From: an uncultured delta proteobacterium
GTDB lineage: Bacteria; Desulfobacterota; Zymogenia; Zymogenales; Zymogenaceae
DNA length: 64,000 nt
Assembly: GCA_963809875.1 (NCBI GenBank)
Contig: CAWELC010000006.1
Span: 128,591-192,590, forward strand
Reading direction: 5' to 3'
The notes beneath the pieces were generated by a model, which ran no database searches, had not been told where the DNA came from, and saw only the letters and a program-made list of their open reading frames with translations. The translations under genes and the position numbers were made by a program. Shown here in pieces: positions 51,001 through 58,862 of the stretch (positions within the stretch are counted from its first letter, which is position 1; the number at the start of each line of letters is the position of its first letter).

Positions 51001-52373
51001 CTAGAAGACCCACTCCCCCTCGCTGTGCGTGAGCTTACCGTCCGAGGTGAGCCAGAGCCTCAGGTTTCCGCTCTTTGCCGTCCCGTTGGCGCGGGAGGAA
51101 AAGCCCATCGTGGCGATGACGGCGCCGTCCGTCAGGCTCGCGCCCGCGGCGTACGCGCTGACCGAGAGCGTCCCCCCGGCGCTGAAGAACTCCGACACCC
51201 CCCTGAGGAGCGCCGAACGGCTTGCGCCGCCGGCCGACCCGTTATAATCGGTCGAAACCAGCCCTGCGAGCGCCCCGGTATCGCCCCGGGACAGGGCCGC
51301 GGAAAACGCATCGACGAACCGGGAGGCCACGTCATTGGGATCGATCTCTTCCTTTTCCGGGGCGGGCGCTTCTTCCGCGGGGGCAGCGAGAGTTCGTTCG
51401 GCCAATGCGGCGACAGCGGGGGGCGGCGCCCCGACGTACGTCGTCCGTGCCCTGAGCGTGTACCCGCCGGCCGGGACGGGGCCGGCCGCGTAGCGCCAGC
51501 GGCCGTTCTCGTCAGGTGCGATCGTCACCCAGCTCGCGCCGTTATCCACGGAGACGAGGGCGGCCCATCCTTGCGCGACCGTACCCTGCTACGGCGGCGG
51601 TTCCGCTCGGCTCCGGTGAGGTCCGCAGCGATGCGGAAGGTCCCGTCACTGCTTTCCGTCCTCTTGCCGTTTACGGTGATGGACGTGATAACCTCCTCTC
51701 GTGGGGCAATCGTGGGGGGCGTGCCGGCAAACCCGAGGGAAATCGAGTCGGTATACGTATCGCGGGAAAGCAGGGGGACGAGCCCGCCACCGAACATCTC
51801 CACCCTCACGCGGCTGTCGCCGCAGACCGGCAGGATGCGGGAATCCCCCAGGAGGGCAAAAACGCACCCCCGGGTCACCCGGAGATAGTAGCCGTTTTCG
51901 AAGACGTCGGCGGCGGCCGTGACATCGGCGCCGGTGACCGGGTCGGTAAAGACCCTCGCCCATCCTGCCGAGAAGAGGACCAGAGACCCCGTCCCCACGG
52001 CCGCCCGCATCCGCCCCGAGGTGAGGCTCAGCCGGGCGGTAATGACGATCTTTTTCGCGCCGGTCTTCTCGTCCGTCATCCACCGGGGCTCGATCGTGTC
52101 GACGGCAAGGGTCGTGCCGCTCCCCAGCGCCACGAGGCTCCCGTCGGGAAATTCCAGCTCGGCGGAGTCCCCCGGTCCCGTGCTCACGGTATCTCCCGGG
52201 CCGACCTTTTCGTGCCGCCAGACCGAGACAAAGTCATCGGTCCCCGCGTATTTTACGGTGACGTGTCCCTCGACCCGGACGATGCGCGCCGCCGGAGCAA
52301 GGGACGCCGCCGCGTGCGCTGCCAGACAGAAGAGGGCCGCGATAAGAAAGGCCGTGCGCGTTGCGGTACACAT
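51001..52373 (-). CDS. secreted FecR-domain protein continuing (after 1-2 frame shifts near 51560-51590) into Ig-like and NTF2-like C-terminal domains
   Basis: Signal MCTATRTAFLIAALFCLAAHAAA. FecR core VGPGDTVSTGPGDSAELEFPDGSLVALGSGTTL. Then VSVDNGASWVTIAPDENGRWRYAAGPVPAGGYTLRARTTY (Ig-like), a Pro/Ala linker, and ...LVSTDYNGSAGG...LRLWLTSDGKLTHSEGEWVF. GGAGG RBS; the ATG is 14 nt after the barrel-gene stop. Confidence 0.6.
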
Positions 52374-52390
52374 CCGGTCACCTCCGAATC

Positions 52391-54068
52391 TCAAAATTCC
52401 AGGCTCACATAGATCCCGAAGAGTCTCTCTCCGTACGCGAGCTCCGGGTTTGGGGACGAGACGTCCCTGAGGACGCCGTGGAGCCCGAGCGTCCCGATCA
52501 GCCCGCCCCGCTTGAGCAGCACCTGCTCCAGGGTGAAATGAAGCGAGTGCTCGCGCGTGTCGTCGGCCGACTCCCGCCGTCTGAAGATCCCCTCGTAGCG
52601 CACCGAGCATCTGGTCGGGTGGTCGGTGAGAAATGAAACGGTCATCGCCGTCCCCGCCCCGACGCGCGCCACCGTATCGGAAAGGTGACCCCTGACGCGG
52701 TCGTGGATGCCCTCGATCCTGACCTCGCCGAGGAGGTCGGCGGAGAATGTATACCGGTCGGTGTCCTTATGGTACCCGAATTCGGCGCCGACGCCGCCGA
52801 TGAGCGTATCGAGATCCGCGGCGGTCTCGTCGTCGTAAGCGCTCCAGGGTGCAGATAAGGGCCCACCGGACGGCGGTGCGCGAATCGCCGATCCGCAACC
52901 GGGCGATGAGCCGCTCGTCGGCGACCGAGCGCGGCGCGTCGTCGGAACTTTCGCGGGAAAGAGTGGCCGAGAGATCGATCGTCAGATTTCTGAACGTGGA
53001 ATCGGCATCGTAGAAAAAGGGCTTGACCGAGAGGCTGATCCCGGGGTCCATCGTATCCGTGCGGTAGGGGGCCGGGGACGAATCGCTCAGGCGATCGTGA
53101 AACCAGCGAAAGTAGGCGGTGGCAGACAGCATCTCCGACGGCGTGTAGCGCAGGCCGGCCGACAGGGTCTCGCGGTCGATGGAGTGGGTCCCCATGACGC
53201 CGATGAAGTCGGGCTCGACCCGCTCGTAGGCCACGAGCAGCGAGAGCTCGTTGCGCAGGGGGGCAAACGAGAGGGCGCACCAGGCGGCGTTCCCCCACAC
53301 GGCCTCGGCGGCAGGCAGCCTCCGGTCCGCGTTATAACTGCTCATGGCAAACTCGCCGGAAAGCACCAGCCGCTCGTCCATGAGCGATATCCGCGAGGAG
53401 AGGGACCAGACGTCATTGCTGTAGTCGGTGACGGCCGAGGGGCGGTACAGCTCGGCGATCTCGGTGTGGACCCAGGAAGCGGCAAGGAGGACGGACCGGG
53501 AGGGGTTCACCTCGAACCGGGCGCCGGAGAATACCCTCCGGTAGGTGTCGCGCCGGGCGTCGCGGTTGGTTCCCCCCAGCAGTGAGACCGAGAGCCACGG
53601 GGCGGGCCGGTAGGTGGCCGCCGCCCCGAAAAAGGCGTTGTTGAACGTGTAGTTGGAGTAGAAGGCCGAGCAGTCCCCCACGCCGATCTGGAAGGTGTCG
53701 CCGGTGATTCCGAGCCTGATCTCGTTTATCATCCAGCTGTCGCCCGGGGCGCGCTGGAGCAGCCGGTCGCTCGTGTGCCTGCCCCAGAAGGAGAAATCGA
53801 CCCCGAGGCCGGAAGGGAGGTCGCGGGAGAAATTGACTCTGAGGCCCTCGTCGTAGTGCCACGCCTCGCCCGTTTCCGGATCGACGTCGAGCGTGGACGC
53901 GCCCAGGTTGCCGTATACGGACTCGTAATAGGTGTCGATGGAGTAGGTCGCCCTGAGATAGCCGCCGTCGTCAAAGTCGGCGGACCAGGCCGCGGGCGCA
54001 GAGAGAGCGACAATGCCCAGGGCAAGGAGCAGGGAGGGGGAGAGGAATATGAATACGGTCCGTTTCAT
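52391..54068 (-). CDS. outer-membrane beta-barrel protein, uncharacterised family; one frame shift near 52855
   Basis: Signal peptide ...SAPAAWSA, alternating beta-strand pattern, and C-terminal ...GIYVSLEF (terminal Phe). Clear homology to 56771..58483 (TYYESVYGN, WHY.E.L, GRH..D, NYTF, LGG.NRD, VTDY.NDV.SL, VEP.F..VMG). Confidence 0.7.
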
Positions 54069-54326
54069 AACGCCTATCAGAGGGATGAAAAGGGATTATC
54101 CGATCGGGGCAATGTCTACGAATATCTGAAAGTATTGGGGAAAACGGGGGGGTTGTCAAGAGGAATGAAGGGGGGAAGAGCGGCGGATGACGAGCGTCGA
54201 AAAAACGAGCCCGTCTGTCAAAAATGAAATAAATCTCGTCCTATTGTATAACCATTTGATAATTTGGTCTTTACTATATCGCCTTTATGCCCTATTATCC
54301 ACGCATATTCCTGAACGGAGGGTTCC

Positions 54327-55653
54327 ATGAAGGACGGATACACAAAGGAAGGATATCTCGTCTCAAGGCGGTACGCTTACTACGTTTTCGCTGTCCTCTT
54401 TGTCATTTACATGATCGATTACGTCGACCGCTATGTGGTGGCCGGGGTCGTCCCTTACCTCAAGATGTCGATTGCCGAGGGGGGACTCGGCCTCTCGGAT
54501 ACCCAGTCCGGCCTGATGATGTCGGTCATCTACTGGTCGATGATCGTGCTCACCTTCCCGTTTTCCATACTCCTGGACCGCTGGAAGCGGGCAAAGAGCC
54601 TCGGGGTCATGGTGATGCTCTGGAGCTTTGCCACCGGCATCTGCGCCTTCACCAAGAGCTTTCCGCAGCTCCTTTCTGCCCGCGTGGCCGTAGGTGTCGG
54701 CGAGGCCGGGTACGTCCCGGGCGGGTACAACCTGATCGCCGCCTACTTCCCCGAGAAGAAGCGGGACCTCATCATCGGCATTTGGAACGCCGCGATCCCC
54801 CTCGGGGTGGTCGGTGGGACGATACTGGGCGGCATCATCGGGGTCCGCTACGGCTGGCGGCACGCCTTCGGGATCGTGGCGATACCGGGGCTTGATACTG
54901 GCGCTCCTCTTCTTCCTTATGAGGGACTACAAGACCGTCGCGCTCCTGAAAACCGTGACGGGCTCCAAGACGTCCCAGAAGATCAAGATGAAGGTGGCCG
55001 ACATCATCAAGGAATTCCTCCACACCCCGTCGCTGCTTCTGACCTACCTGGGCTACACCGGCTGCGTGTTTGTCACCAACGCGCTGTTGTTCTGGCTTCC
55101 CTCCTACTTCAACCGCACCGAGGGGCTCCCCATGGACAAGGCGTCCATGAAGTCGTCGGTCGTGTTCCTGCTGGCCATCGTGGGCGCCCCGCTGGGAGGG
55201 ATATTGACCAACCTGCTGCAGAAGAGGGTCAAAAACGCACGGCTCGTGTTTCCGACGATCAGCTGCCTGGTCTCCGCGATCCTGCTCTTTGCCGCGTTCT
55301 ATTTCTTCCAGGGCAAAGCCCAGTACTATCTCCTCGTCGCGATGGGGCTGACCATCCCGATGTTTATCGCGGGGTCTGCCGCCGTCACCCAGGACGTCGT
55401 CCACCCGGGGCTTCGCTCGATATCGTTTTCCCTCTGCATGGTCGTCCACAACCTGCTGGGGGGATCCATCGGGCCGATCTTCGTGGGGTTCATCTCCGAC
55501 CGCTCCGCCGATCCCGCCATCGGGCTGACGGCCGGGATAAAATACCTCCCGTTTTTCCTCGCCCTCGGCGCGGCGTTCTTTTTCGTCGGCTCTTTCTTTT
55601 ACACGAAAGACCTGGCGAAAGTGGAGCGGGTGGTGCTGGAACCGGAAAAATAG
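54327..55653 (+). CDS. MFS transporter, one frame shift near 54893
   Basis: YAYYVFAVLFVIYMIDYVDRYVV...LLDRWKRAK...AVGVGEAGYVPGG...AIPG | LILALLFFL..., about 12 predicted TM segments across two frames. Confidence 0.75.
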
Positions 55654-55671
55654 CGAGTCTTTCCGACTGCA

Positions 55672-55701
55672 AAAAGGCCGCGGCGGAAGCTGCGGCCTTT
55701 T
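55672..55701. terminator. bidirectional intrinsic terminator
   Basis: AAAAGGCCGC-GGCGGAAGCT-GCGGCCTTTT between convergent genes. Confidence 0.7.
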
Positions 55702-55738
55702 CTAAAGGGTTTCCTTTCATCGTTTAGCAGAGCGCGTA

Positions 55739-56215
55739 TTAGAAGAACCAGTCACCCTCGGCGTGGATTAGTTTCCAATCGCCCTCATCATTTGATATCC
55801 ACCACTTAGTTCTACCATTCTCTATAGTACCGTTAATGTTAGAAACCCAACTTGTAGAGAGTACTATTACGTTAACTCCGCTATTAGCAGTGTCCTCATC
55901 CATGGGATAGCTGATTCGACCGATCGAATATGTTACATTTATATTCTCTCTGCTATCAAAAAAACTTTGTATTCCACTCATAAAATCTGTTTTTGAACTA
56001 AAACCTCCCACGTTACCAGTGTAATCATCGGATATAAGCTCCCTTATGCCATATACATTCTTCACTTCAAATGACTCAAAGAAGGACCGAGCAAACTTGG
56101 TGGCTTTGTCTGCGTTCTGATCTTCGATTTGATTACTATACGTGTTGATAGATATAGAAAAGAAAGAGACTAATACGCTACCGATAATTAATACTTTCTT
56201 TACTGTTTCCATCAT
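55739..56215 (-). CDS. small exported NTF2/SnoaL-like protein (island copy 2)
   Basis: N-terminal anchor/signal VKKVLIIGSVLVSFFSISI. ...ELISDDYTGNVGGFSSKTDF...TKWWISNDEGDWKLIHAEGDWFF, with the same C-terminal motif as 56277 and 51001. Confidence 0.6.
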   Translation of the reverse strand: MMETVKKVLIIGSVLVSFFSISINTYSNQIEDQNADKATKFARSFFESFEVKNVYGIRELISDDYTGNVGGFSSKTDFMSGIQSFFDSRENINVTYSIGRISYPMDEDTANSGVNVIVLSTSWVSNINGTIENGRTKWWISNDEGDWKLIHAEGDWFF

Positions 56216-56276
56216 AACCCCGAAGAATACATGAACTTAATAGTCCATTAGCAGGTGAAACGGTGTGAAATGGCCG

Positions 56277-56732
56277 TTAAACTACTTCAAAGAACCAGTC
56301 TCCAGCTGTCTTTTCAATTTTCTTAATTTTGAAATTATCCAGTTCTGAGACCCACCACGTAATTTGACCACTTTTATACGCACCAAGATCACCTTCCCAA
56401 ATTACTGTTATTTTGTATATCATGTCTTCATAGATAATTTTTTGGATTTCAGATAAGAATCCTATTTCTTGGTCAGATCCAATAAAGAATGCGGTCGTCT
56501 GGCTAATAAGATCATCAGCAGAGCTGAAGATCCCCCCGATACCGTCATATGCGGGGGATATAAGGGATTCTATAGCTTTTATATTTCTGGTCTTAAAGTA
56601 ATCAAGAAAATCTAGGACGACATTCCTTGCTTTTTGTCCTGGATCCATTAATCCAAGCTTACTCTTTTGCAGCTTTTTACTCTTGCCGTTTTGACTTGCT
56701 TCGGTTCTTTTCCCACTTTTCATTCTTTTCAC
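56277..56732 (-). CDS. small NTF2/SnoaL-like protein with Lys-rich N-terminus (island copy 1)
   Basis: ...ESLISPAYDGIGGIFSSADDL...GQITWWVSELDNFKIKKIEKTAGDWFFEVV. No clear signal peptide, so the start is uncertain. Confidence 0.55.
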   Translation of the reverse strand: MKRMKSGKRTEASQNGKSKKLQKSKLGLMDPGQKARNVVLDFLDYFKTRNIKAIESLISPAYDGIGGIFSSADDLISQTTAFFIGSDQEIGFLSEIQKIIYEDMIYKITVIWEGDLGAYKSGQITWWVSELDNFKIKKIEKTAGDWFFEVV

Positions 56733-56770
56733 CTGATCTGCAATAAGAAGGTTGCAGTTTATTAGAAATT

Positions 56771-58483
56771 CTAGAATGAGATGGTAAAGTCTAAGGAATA
56801 TATATTCTCTCCGTAGCGTTTCTGAGTATCCAATGGGCGAGAGTCGAAGTTCCTGTAACTTGCGCCTATGGAGTAGATATATTTCTCTCTCTCTCGTATA
56901 AAACTTATCTTGGCTTCATGCGAAGTGGTTCCCCCCTGACCGTTTATGAATTCGCCAGTGTACGATAATCTAAGTCGATTGACATTACTATTGTACGGAA
57001 ACCGTATATTTAACCCCGTCCTGACTATAGATAAAACCTCCAAAGAGTCTACGTCTGTGCTATGATTAAAGGTTTTCTTAAAACCTACCTGGTAGACTAT
57101 ATAGGGATTCCAATGAATATTTGATAAATTAAATTCACAGCTATAGCTTGTTAAGAGTGTATTAGTATAAGACTCGACATCAGTAACTGAATTGTCGTTC
57201 TGTTCGAAATCGTAGCCACAAGAGTAAGACATGTCAACACTATCTAATTTCGAGCTATTCGAAATTCTTAGGCCGGCATTCCTACTCTCTTCGTTTACGC
57301 TTCTTGGGTCATTCTCAGATTGTCTGTTCGTGGAGCCATAGTAAATAGCTAGCTGAAGACCTTTAAGAAAGGTTGCTACATCTCGGTAATAGAATGGCGT
57401 TAAGGTAATATCACCATAAGAGGTATTAATATTAGTACGATAATCTTTTAGCGTATTATCATTGAGGGAGTCCCTGCTGTGAAAATAATAACTATAGACT
57501 TTTAGGAATTCCGACCTCTTGTATCTCAAACTCGCTCTGATTTTCTCTATATCGTTACTGTATTTTCCCATAACCGCGTGAAACTGAGGTTCAACATATT
57601 CGTAGTCAACGCTAAGATCTAAATAGTTGTAATAAGCGTCAGAATATTCGTAGTATAAGCCTAATCTTAATGCCAATCCATAATAGGTATCTACTTCATG
57701 ACCTGCACGGTTAGGATTATACCAGCTTATAGCTAATTCACTTTTGATATTAATTGTATTGTCAACTATATTTGGATTACCGAGCGAACCTAATTCAAAA
57801 TGCAGATTTGTATCGAGAGATAAAACATCATTACAGTAATCGGTTACTATTGTATCTGGGTATAGTTTGGAGACTTCAGTATGAATATAGGAAATGCCGA
57901 CAAGATAAGCTGGTATTCTTATATAGGCCTTTGGTGTAAATTCTAGTCGTAAACCACCAAATATGTGTTCGAACGTATCTTCTTCGCCATCGCGGTTTCT
58001 TCCTCCAAGTACCTTCATCTTAAATTGAGGGGAAAACTTATACCATCCTCTTATACCTAGGAAAGAATCACTAAAGGTGTAGTTTGTATAGTATTCAAAA
58101 TTATCTCCAATACTAATAGCGAATTTGTCTTTCTTAGTTATGCCAAAATATACCTCTAATAGTTCCCAACGCTTATCCAAATCGCCAGTAACGACCTTGT
58201 CGGTAGCGTGTCTACCTAACAGATGCAGTTTTAGTATTAGGTCATCTTTTAGGGCTTGGCTAAAATCAATTAGGAGATTCTCATTATAGTGCCAGTTATC
58301 CCCAGTCCTCAGATTAATATCAAGGGTGGATTGACTGCGGTTTCCGTACACGGATTCATAATACGTCTTCGATATCTGTAGTTGTATCAAGACGTCCAGC
58401 TCCGCCGCCCACTCGATGGCGTGCAGGGTCAGCGGAGAAAGGAGGATAATTGAAAGGAAGATGAAAAATAAGACCTTTTTCAT
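56771..58483 (-). CDS. outer-membrane beta-barrel protein, AT-rich homologue of 52391..54068
   Basis: Signal MKKVLFFIFLSIILLSPLTLHA. 570 aa, intact, Tyr/Asn/Ser-rich strands, C-terminal YSLDFTISF. Confidence 0.75.
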   Translation of the reverse strand: MKKVLFFIFLSIILLSPLTLHAIEWAAELDVLIQLQISKTYYESVYGNRSQSTLDINLRTGDNWHYNENLLIDFSQALKDDLILKLHLLGRHATDKVVTGDLDKRWELLEVYFGITKKDKFAISIGDNFEYYTNYTFSDSFLGIRGWYKFSPQFKMKVLGGRNRDGEEDTFEHIFGGLRLEFTPKAYIRIPAYLVGISYIHTEVSKLYPDTIVTDYCNDVLSLDTNLHFELGSLGNPNIVDNTINIKSELAISWYNPNRAGHEVDTYYGLALRLGLYYEYSDAYYNYLDLSVDYEYVEPQFHAVMGKYSNDIEKIRASLRYKRSEFLKVYSYYFHSRDSLNDNTLKDYRTNINTSYGDITLTPFYYRDVATFLKGLQLAIYYGSTNRQSENDPRSVNEESRNAGLRISNSSKLDSVDMSYSCGYDFEQNDNSVTDVESYTNTLLTSYSCEFNLSNIHWNPYIVYQVGFKKTFNHSTDVDSLEVLSIVRTGLNIRFPYNSNVNRLRLSYTGEFINGQGGTTSHEAKISFIREREKYIYSIGASYRNFDSRPLDTQKRYGENIYSLDFTISF

Positions 58484-58862
58484 AAATCTCCCCGAATGGG
58501 AAGGAATTAACGGTCAAGGGAATTGACGAGAACCTATAAAGGAAATTAGGGAATCCTAATTATGGACTGTAGGTTGAACTTTATTACGAGGCAAGTCAAG
58601 CAATATTATGTATGCAAATATAATGTTTATTGATGGTAAATGGGGATGGGGAGGAGAAATGAAGATACAAGAACGATATCAGGAGTTTGCGAGCGTTGAC
58701 AAGTATATAATAATTTTACTATTAGTATGTAACAACTTCGCCGTTATACAAAGTGCATTATCGTACGCCGCCTCTCCAAACGGGTACACGTCGCGGCGGC
58801 ACCGGGTCCTTATCCGTGGTTAAATCACCTGCCCAACCGACGACTACGCCGAATCTTGCGTC

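Follow-up and report, generated by a model that had tools for sequence, protein, structure and literature searches.

The stretch of DNA analysed here, which we call the window, comprises 64,000 nucleotides (nt) of contig CAWELC010000006.1 (NCBI GenBank assembly GCA_963809875.1), from an uncultured delta proteobacterium. Between a gene for an MFS transporter and a gene for a GH116 glycoside hydrolase it contains an AT-rich island of about 3 kb with three genes, which we refer to as the cassette; on the other side of the MFS gene lies a G+C-rich operon for a barrel and its partner protein, which we refer to as the resident operon. The features of this locus are given below, with protein lengths in amino acids (aa), open reading frames abbreviated as ORF and the G+C content of third codon positions as GC3.

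51001..52373, minus strand: resident G+C-rich partner gene, about 455 aa (tblastn with L026_p455, 68% and 77% identity, two frames)
52391..54068, minus strand: resident G+C-rich barrel gene, about 558 aa, GC3 0.87 (tblastn with the L026 barrel, 78% identity, two frames)
54069..54168, minus strand: promoter-like block upstream of the resident barrel gene (…CTCATTCCTCTTGACAACCCC…CCAATACTTTCAGATATTCGTAGACATT…; shared-sequence comparison)
54327..55653, plus strand: MFS transporter gene, G+C content 0.60, frame switch near 54736..54895 (Pfam MFS_1, E = 3e-14)
55672..55701, no strand assigned: G+C-rich hairpin with flanking A and T runs (inverted repeat I20 and sequence)
55739..56215, minus strand: cassette gene 3, NTF2-like, 158 aa (ORF list and predicted structure)
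56277..56732, minus strand: cassette gene 2, NTF2-like, 151 aa (ORF list and alignments to FecR-domain partner proteins)
56771..58483, minus strand: cassette gene 1, predicted outer-membrane beta-barrel, 570 aa (ORF list)
58543..58760, minus strand: AT-rich non-coding leader of the cassette, 33% G+C (alignment to L032 and L030)
58863..61555, minus strand: GH116 glycoside hydrolase gene with frame switches, the conserved 5' flank of the slot described below

The AT-rich span extends from 55735 to about 58760 (3,026 nt) and has a G+C content of 0.377 (37.7%). The other 3-kb windows of the 64 kb (n = 219) have a G+C content of 0.611 ± 0.021 with a minimum of 0.557, which gives the island a z-score of -11.4; at both edges the content changes from 0.60-0.66 to 0.34-0.40 within about 100 nt. 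The island is the lowest-G+C part of the window, the remainder never falling below 0.53 in 1-kb windows, and its composition-corrected tetranucleotide profile correlates with the rest at r = 0.31, against 0.88 ± 0.03 for other windows. An earlier sequence-only annotation of this DNA, hereafter the original prediction, had described an abrupt AT-rich island of about 3 kb and called it the sharpest compositional discontinuity in the window, and the G+C, GC3, sliding-window and tetranucleotide profiles bear out both statements. Of the extent that it gave, 55735-58860, the left edge stands and the right edge does not: the 100 nt adjoining the GH116 stop codon have 58-60% G+C and hence lie outside the AT-rich span. 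The three island genes have a GC3 of 0.35-0.39, compared with 0.72-0.87 for neighbouring genes, their first and second codon positions are likewise depressed in G+C, and FYMINK residues make up 0.34-0.37 of each island protein versus 0.15-0.19 of the G+C-rich paralogs described below. Since the first two codon positions and the amino-acid usage are shifted too, the AT bias is no cosmetic feature but an old and deep one; the island is foreign to the host in composition, in oligonucleotide signature and in its use of amino acids.

The ORF list agrees with the original prediction in placing three intact genes here, all on the minus strand and tightly packed, with gaps of 38 and 61 nt. The first gene (G+C content 0.38, GC3 0.39) encodes a protein with a signal peptide, about 26 predicted strands, no plug and a C-terminal Phe, a residue that is invariant across the barrel family. 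Its AlphaFold model was graded confident (predicted local distance difference test, pLDDT, 83; predicted template-modelling score, pTM, 0.73). Foldseek returned MtrB (6r2q_B) as the top match, with a template-modelling score (TM-score) of 0.44-0.49 and 10% identity; because the next matches, namely SlpA, the FimD/PapC ushers and TonB-dependent transporters, score alike, the likeness of the modelled barrel to MtrB appears to be generic. The protein matches no Pfam or NCBIfam family. In particular, it has no match to Pfam DUF6029, a family of predicted outer-membrane barrels, for which the G+C-rich paralog scores 23.5 bits (below the gathering cut-off of 27) and which three of ten barrel-family members match, each weakly.

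The small proteins encoded by genes 2 and 3 are mutual homologs, and neither reaches a Pfam family by sequence. The 151-aa product of gene 2 has a basic N-terminus and no signal peptide, and in alignments it corresponds to a standalone form of a domain found within FecR-domain partner proteins (BLASTP to residues ~345-460 of L027_p580 and L029_p585, E = 3e-9 to 5e-9). The 158-aa product of gene 3, the only one of the pair with an export signal, has an N-terminal signal or anchor segment and the terminal family motif HAEGDWFF, and matches L029_p585 with E = 1e-20 and the C-terminus of the G+C-rich partner of the window with E = 4e-11; its model (pLDDT 77) resembles NTF2/SnoaL/cystatin-like structures in Foldseek (TM-score 0.6-0.8, E down to ~1e-6). 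Both proteins lack cysteine, so neither has a CXXCH haem motif, and the multihaem periplasmic partner that marks MtrB-type porin-cytochrome systems is missing from the cassette. From the predicted structures, the best-supported function is that the cassette would supply an alternative outer-membrane barrel together with two NTF2-like accessory proteins.

Word-index protein searches with the island barrel and with the family profile returned only the query, probably being swamped by low-complexity AT-type words, and we therefore searched 1.84 billion representative proteins exhaustively with HMMER. This yielded 74 relatives at E ≤ 1e-3, of which 12 reach E ≤ 1e-30, and none is more than 35% identical to the island barrel; the nearest homologs reside in DNA of 49-55% G+C. 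A metagenome scan with a profile of the G+C-rich barrels found nothing beyond L026. P0008 (JGI 3300075153), at 31% identity, ranks among the family members closest to the island barrel. After it come genes for a 626-aa protein, an ORF of 44 aa and a caspase-like Peptidase_C14 protein, and before it lies a large gene that is truncated at the end of the contig. We rejected a mosaic 5' end common to P0008 and the window as a recombination signal, as the N-terminal ~70 residues are conserved family-wide, the G+C-rich clade included.

The island barrel is related to a protein encoded nearby. Over 417 aa it shares 35% identity (E = 2e-77) with the product of a G+C-rich ORF at 52767..54068, about 2.7 kb away. 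With the intact L026 ortholog from another metagenome as a guide, this G+C-rich locus was resolved into the two genes of the resident operon, each with a single frame switch (at ~52838..52842 in the barrel gene and at 51585..51630 in the partner gene). The resident barrel has orthologs in P0004, P0078, P0079, P0081 and others; the resident partner has a signal peptide, a FecR-like domain (weak Pfam FecR match) and an NTF2-like C-terminal domain, to which the small proteins of the cassette are homologous. All three cassette genes are thus distant paralogs (~21–35% identity) of the barrel and FecR/NTF2 partner operon (51001..54068), which lies 1.7 kb from the cassette. A barrel gene followed by a partner gene is a conserved unit of the family in other organisms (L026-L029), the FecR domain of the partner being clear in L027 and L029 and weak or unrecorded in L026 and L028. 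Since both the barrel and the small proteins are homologous to products of the resident operon, the cassette is, judged by these alignments, a divergent second copy of the neighbouring barrel/partner system, from which it differs in having no FecR domain and in carrying the NTF2-like domain as two standalone genes. If the resident operon is a guide, the NTF2-like module may be the part of the partner that is retained with this barrel family. In L028 the barrel and a 380-aa partner (1808..4634, 46-49% G+C) adjoin a thiolase gene of ~60% G+C (4963..6157) that is 75% identical in nucleotide sequence to the thiolase gene of the window (47025..48222), a milder compositional step at the barrel locus.

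We compared the locus with that of related genomes whose core genes are 76-89% identical to the window at the nucleotide level, none of them conspecific with it. The space between the GH116 gene and the resident operon, which we call the slot, is occupied as follows:

L034, NCBI GCA_040961635.1: slot empty, 67 nt from GH116 gene to barrel gene
L035, ENA ERZ25039527: slot empty, 123 nt from GH116 gene to barrel gene
L030, JGI 3300029799: AT-rich island of 3.6 kb (33-45% G+C) with genes for a 586-aa barrel and a 395-aa partner
L032, NCBI GCA_016933535.1 ('Deltaproteobacteria bacterium'), and L033, an independent Logan assembly: segment of 40-49% G+C
L036, a more distant relative whose downstream neighbourhood differs: segment of 37% G+C with a gene for a 717-aa repeat protein

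The window and L030 share the order GH116 gene, slot, G+C-rich barrel operon, which L034 and L035 also keep around an empty slot. In L032/L033 and L036 the cassette stands directly upstream of the barrel operon, the GH116 gene lying beyond the contig in the former (which begins 3.8 kb upstream of the barrel) and the contig of the latter beginning 3.4 kb upstream; the contig of L026 (JGI 3300031949) ends 160 nt upstream of the barrel, within AT-rich DNA. The window is collinear with L034 save for 54076..58876 and 49007..50992. The first of these, a segment of 4.8 kb relative to the empty-site genomes, consists of the AT-rich cassette, the MFS gene and the barrel promoter region. The original prediction had proposed asking whether the MFS and GH116 genes are adjacent in related genomes, and in L034 and L035 the GH116 gene abuts the barrel gene and the MFS gene is missing.

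The contents of the slot differ far more than its surroundings. The L030 barrel is 25-26% identical to that of the window, whereas the flanks of L030 are 81-89% identical at the nucleotide level, and its 395-aa partner has no detectable NTF2-like similarity and only a very weak FecR match. The L032/L033 segment encodes a lipoprotein, a secreted C39/C70-like cysteine peptidase and two further secreted proteins. Across the window, L030, L032 and L036, most slot proteins carry export signals. In a tree of the barrel family, the G+C-rich barrels form a coherent orthologous clade of two subclades, each of which includes genomes with filled and with empty slots. The AT-rich barrel alleles (window, L030, P0008) fall outside this clade on long branches and are 26-31% identical to one another, the window allele being nearest to barrels of other organisms (L027, 35%; L029, 33%). 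No common oligonucleotide signature, as might be expected of a single donor pool, unites the AT-rich cassettes (r = 0.25-0.47).

The window, L030 and L032 have conserved sequences at both borders of the slot. The leader of the window cassette is 76% identical to positions 1328..1544 of L032, which precede an unrelated cassette, a level equal to that of core genes, and a three-way alignment extends to the region before the L030 cassette. The alignment includes an invariant 22-nt core, ATTATATTTGCATACATAATAT, at 58603..58624, within an imperfect palindrome at 58601..58635, TCAATAAAyATTAT-N10-ATAATATTnnTTGA. In the window the core is followed by TTGACT (58594..58599), 17 nt and CAACCT (58571..58576), and the three leaders have in common the pattern TTGAC(T/A)-N17-CAAC(C/A)T, some 60-110 nt before the first gene of the cassette. 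The core occurs once in the window and is exact in L030, L032 and L033; it is absent from 32 other loci (the empty-site L034 and L035 included), from L036 and from viral contigs. On the basis of these sequence motifs, the leader is a probable promoter/operator. We rejected a structured RNA, given an RNAalifold energy of -8 kcal/mol with an unfavourable covariation term and no Rfam family. A probably spurious 71-aa ORF (58608..58823, plus strand) overlaps the leader; the three leaders are not conserved in a codon-like pattern. On the barrel side, the block at 54069..54168 is common to the window, L030 and L032, and partly L026, is absent from L034 and L035, and constitutes the conserved 3' border of the slot in cassette-bearing genomes. 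Homology of the G+C-rich tail at 58770..58862 to the L034 spacer was considered and dropped, the end-repeat tests giving p = 0.12-0.64.

Replacement flexible genomic islands occupy the same locus and serve a similar function with a wholly different genetic makeup, and their G+C content is below that of the genome (PMC11898729). For a role of homologous recombination, that article cites Lopez-Perez, Martin-Cuadrado & Rodriguez-Valera 2014. The slot is found at the same position between conserved flanks in related genomes, its alternative contents have little or no homology (the window and L030 barrels are 26% identical, and L032 and L036 hold unrelated genes), and with the same position, different contents and lower G+C content it therefore matches the description of such an island. 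From these observations, we hypothesize that the GH116/barrel position is the variable slot of a replacement flexible genomic island and that the AT-rich segment is one of its alleles, a reading that we consider moderately probable. The slot would be either empty or filled with one of several barely related or unrelated AT-rich cassettes for envelope or secreted proteins, that of the window being a strongly diverged second form of the resident barrel/partner system. Cassettes would be swapped by homologous recombination in the conserved borders after uptake of DNA from a diverse gene pool, and their products would be surface-exposed and under diversifying selection, for instance by phages or predators. 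Transcription of the cassette would start from a putative promoter in the conserved leader and end at the hairpin at 55672..55701. In L030, the last ~200 nt of the GH116 gene (5700..5957, against 58863..59100 of the window) are 40-57% identical to the other genomes and the remainder ~80-85%, and this diverged 3' end may mark a point where recombination ended at the 5' border of the slot.

We stress that several observations weigh against this hypothesis. Variation within one population is the hallmark of replacement islands, and the relatives compared, at 76-86% nucleotide identity, are not conspecific; the flank has no long gradient of divergence, identity falling only in the last ~200 nt of the GH116 gene (with four genomes, neither an extended gradient nor a breakpoint was detectable); and the contents of L032 and L036 may not be functionally equivalent to the barrel system. 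L036 has no recognizable leader, and the MFS gene sits between the window cassette and the 3' border. In addition, cassette gene 2 encodes no signal peptide and the cassette has no FecR domain, a domain present in all other partners examined except the 395-aa partner of L030, where the match is very weak; given these two absences, the cassette may be a partly degenerate version of the barrel/partner system.

A bolder form of the hypothesis, which we put forward tentatively and think unlikely, is that the slot is a dedicated expression site, in which the operator-bearing leader drives whichever cassette is currently present and the AT-richness is maintained in the pool and is not the footprint of a donor. 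AT-richness could then persist either because non-homologous alleles escape GC-biased gene conversion or because AT-rich DNA is required for silencer-type regulation.

The original prediction had left open a choice between a recent horizontal acquisition from a low-G+C donor and a chimeric join in the assembly. Horizontal acquisition, in the broad sense, is supported by the alien composition, by the patchy presence (the cassette is absent from L034 and L035) and by the position of the barrel outside the resident clade; 'recent' and 'low-G+C donor' are not borne out, the best relative being 35% identical and the nearest homologs lying in DNA of 49-55% G+C. A chimera, in which a fragment of a low-G+C organism was misjoined into a high-G+C contig, might be suspected from the abruptness of the compositional switch and from the source, apparently a metagenome-assembled contig with many indel-type frame errors. 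It would require two precise false joins in intergenic DNA, and the AT-rich leader is conserved at the same locus in relatives, the G+C-rich/AT-rich/G+C-rich architecture is repeated in three independent assemblies (L030 from JGI, L032 from an NCBI metagenome-assembled genome (MAG), L033 from Logan) and the inserted genes and the adjacent host operon are of one rare family; on these grounds it is effectively excluded. Nor does the view of an arbitrary insertion fit a slot that is conserved, recurrently occupied and provided with a conserved leader. A separate rival view holds that a one-off, recent horizontal insertion from a low-G+C donor entered a hot spot by an illegitimate or site-specific mechanism, the cassette of each relative being an independent event. 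The alien composition at all three codon positions, the absence of the segment from L034 and L035, the heterogeneous oligonucleotide signatures among the cassettes of different genomes and the missing gradient of flank divergence all agree with it, and a second AT-rich insertion in L035 and a ThDP gene insertion in the window (both described below) show that the region tolerates insertions. However, the leader in front of three different cassettes is conserved at the level of the core genome, which makes the AT-rich DNA, at least in its 5' part, old and resident; moreover, the insertion is accompanied by no integrase, tRNA, terminal repeat or target duplication and has no phage or plasmid relatives, and that random inserts should in two genomes bring paralogs of the operon next to them would be a striking coincidence. 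We therefore regard a one-off insertion as unlikely.

On the side of mobility, the original prediction had seen no integrase, transposase, tRNA or flanking repeats, and tRNA, repeat and synteny checks concur. We found no tRNA gene in the 64-kb window, no flanking direct or inverted repeat or target duplication at the island ends (target duplications and diverged direct repeats were not significant, p = 0.12-0.64), and no integrase or transposase within ~9 kb, where all genes are accounted for by synteny with relatives; the integrase, tRNA or att site and direct repeats of an integrase-mediated, tRNA-linked island are thus missing here. The three cassette proteins match no PHROG or PADLOC family, and the cassette has no match in viral contigs, phage genomes or plasmids, on which basis a phage, plasmid or defence origin was rejected. 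Another possibility is that the cassette is an ancient tandem paralog that arose in situ, was inherited vertically, evolved very fast and was kept AT-rich by a local regime (for example, escape from GC-biased gene conversion, or selection that favours silencing or weak expression), to be lost in L034 and L035 and replaced in L032 and L036. That the window and L030 both have a barrel and a partner behind the same leader, at the same position beside the resident paralog, speaks for it, as do the deep shift in the first two codon positions and in amino-acid usage, which implies long residence under AT pressure, and the failure to find a low-G+C donor lineage. Vertical descent is hard to reconcile with window and L030 alleles that are 26% identical though their flanks are 81-89% identical (nt), with a tree in which the window allele is nearer to the L027 (35%) and L029 (33%) barrels than to the L030 allele, and with partner architectures as different as two NTF2-like proteins and one 395-aa protein, and we consider it distinctly improbable.

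The proposed replacement island has a number of counterparts among known systems. Like O-antigen or O-chain replacement islands, it has a fixed position, barely homologous or non-homologous alternative contents that relate to the envelope, and a lower G+C content; replacement islands in general need no integrase or tRNA, exchange being ascribed to recombination in the flanks, and neither is present here. Unlike O-antigen islands, it is tiny (3 kb, three genes) and encodes an outer-membrane barrel and NTF2-like partners, not glycosyltransferases; its G+C deficit is ~23 points, versus ~6 in Pelagibacterales; and a G+C-rich resident paralog adjoins it. JUMPstart/ops elements are conserved 5' leaders of variable polysaccharide clusters and recruit RfaH in enterobacteria. 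The slot resembles them in having a conserved non-coding leader ahead of variable, low-G+C, putatively exchanged envelope genes; however, no ops-like motif is conserved among the three leaders, and the AT-rich palindrome and TTGAC box look like an operator/promoter, not an antitermination signal. Integron cassettes are likewise interchangeable and promoter-proximal, downstream of a conserved region, but here there is no integrase within ~9 kb and no repeated attC-like element at the cassette ends, each cassette has several genes, and a separate terminator and promoter serve the neighbouring operon. At the level of the proteins, the large plug-less barrel of ~26 strands beside a gene for a periplasmic or secreted partner recalls MtrB (PDB 6r2q chain B), from which it is set apart by a TM-score of only 0.44-0.49, 10% identity and partners without CXXCH haem motifs. 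The FecR domain of the resident and family partners, beside an outer-membrane barrel, recalls FecR-domain systems (FecA/FecR/FecI; leptospiral LipL45-type), although the window cassette has no FecR domain, the barrels have no plug or signalling domain and no extracytoplasmic function (ECF) sigma factor gene is adjacent.

If this interpretation is correct, an apparent assembly oddity becomes a clean, very small replacement-type island in an uncultured, high-G+C, Desulfobacterota-like lineage, one that adds to an already known kind of genomic island and brings to light a rare, unannotated family of outer-membrane barrels and partners. With copies of the same family 1.7 kb apart and a 48-point gap in GC3 (0.87 vs 0.39), the locus offers a natural experiment on AT-rich variable envelope loci; were the slot indeed an expression site, the adjacent G+C-rich paralog would be a built-in control for the question of why such islands keep their AT-richness. 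A concrete candidate for a regulatory element is provided by the conserved palindromic leader. For annotation pipelines, segments of this sort should not be trimmed as contamination.

The hairpin at 55672..55701, which the original prediction had named as the MFS terminator, was recovered as inverted repeat I20. It coincides with the left compositional boundary and, lying between the convergent cassette and MFS genes, is a probable bidirectional terminator. The hairpin and the MFS stop codon fall within a sub-threshold Rfam match to the sRNA BjrC68 (55618..55708, plus strand; 21.7 bits against a gathering cut-off of 39, E = 0.017), most likely a chance match to a hairpin and U-run. The MFS gene has a host-like composition, yet it is missing from L034 and L035 (where it belongs to the 4.8-kb segment), L030 and L032; relative to L034, collinearity of the window breaks at 58877 and 54075. 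In L030 and L032, clear G+C-rich terminator hairpins end the cassettes upstream of the barrel promoter block, and the window has only a degenerate counterpart on the minus strand (54170..54235), beyond the MFS gene. This arrangement hints at an insertion of the MFS gene that separated the cassette from the terminator it originally had. The GH116 gene is 81-82% identical in nucleotide sequence to those of L030, L034 and L035 (Pfam Glyco_hydr_116N and GH116_catalytic).

About 15 switches of frame between overlapping same-strand, GC3-rich ORFs occur over the 61 kb of G+C-rich sequence, many of them at G/C runs:

Frame-switch sites: 12001-12131, 12611-12816, 15934-16051, 21979-22222, 22932-23052
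Frame-switch sites: 31301-31358, 34410-34510, 45685-45791, 63410-63510
Frame-switch sites: 52838-52842, 51585-51630, 54736-54895, 59567-59637, 59909-60227

They are probably uncorrected indels of a long-read assembly and not marks of pseudogenes. At this rate, ~0.7 switches would be expected in the 2.7 kb of island coding sequence, and fewer if the errors follow G/C homopolymers, of which (runs of 5 or more) there are 3 in the island versus 196 elsewhere. That the island genes are intact and the flanking genes are not, as had been pointed out, is factually right but not significant, fewer than one switch being expected. We also rejected the idea that the island is replacing a decaying resident operon, since the switches are window-wide, number one per resident gene and interrupt sequence that is otherwise 68-78% conserved.

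The second insertion relative to L034 (49007..50992) contains a thiamine diphosphate (ThDP)-dependent, acetolactate-synthase-like gene (49212..50921, plus strand, 569 aa) of host-like composition, which is absent between the partner and AlaX-like genes in L030, L032, L034 and L035. Its closest relatives (63-67% identity) are scattered among Leptospirales, Spirochaetes, Desulfobacterota and Bacteriovoracaceae MAGs, which suggests that the ThDP gene is itself mobile; a scan of a genome collection with this gene returned relatives of 53-67% identity in several phyla, with no barrel homologs nearby. Another AT-rich insertion (36-43% G+C) is present in L035 at 16000..17500, between the AlaX-like and thiolase genes and directly downstream of a SocA/Panacea gene; a PemK-type toxin gene and an ORF of 344 aa lie within it. 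Small AT-rich insertions make a hot spot of the whole neighbourhood, and zeta-toxin modules are likewise gained or lost in L032 and L035.

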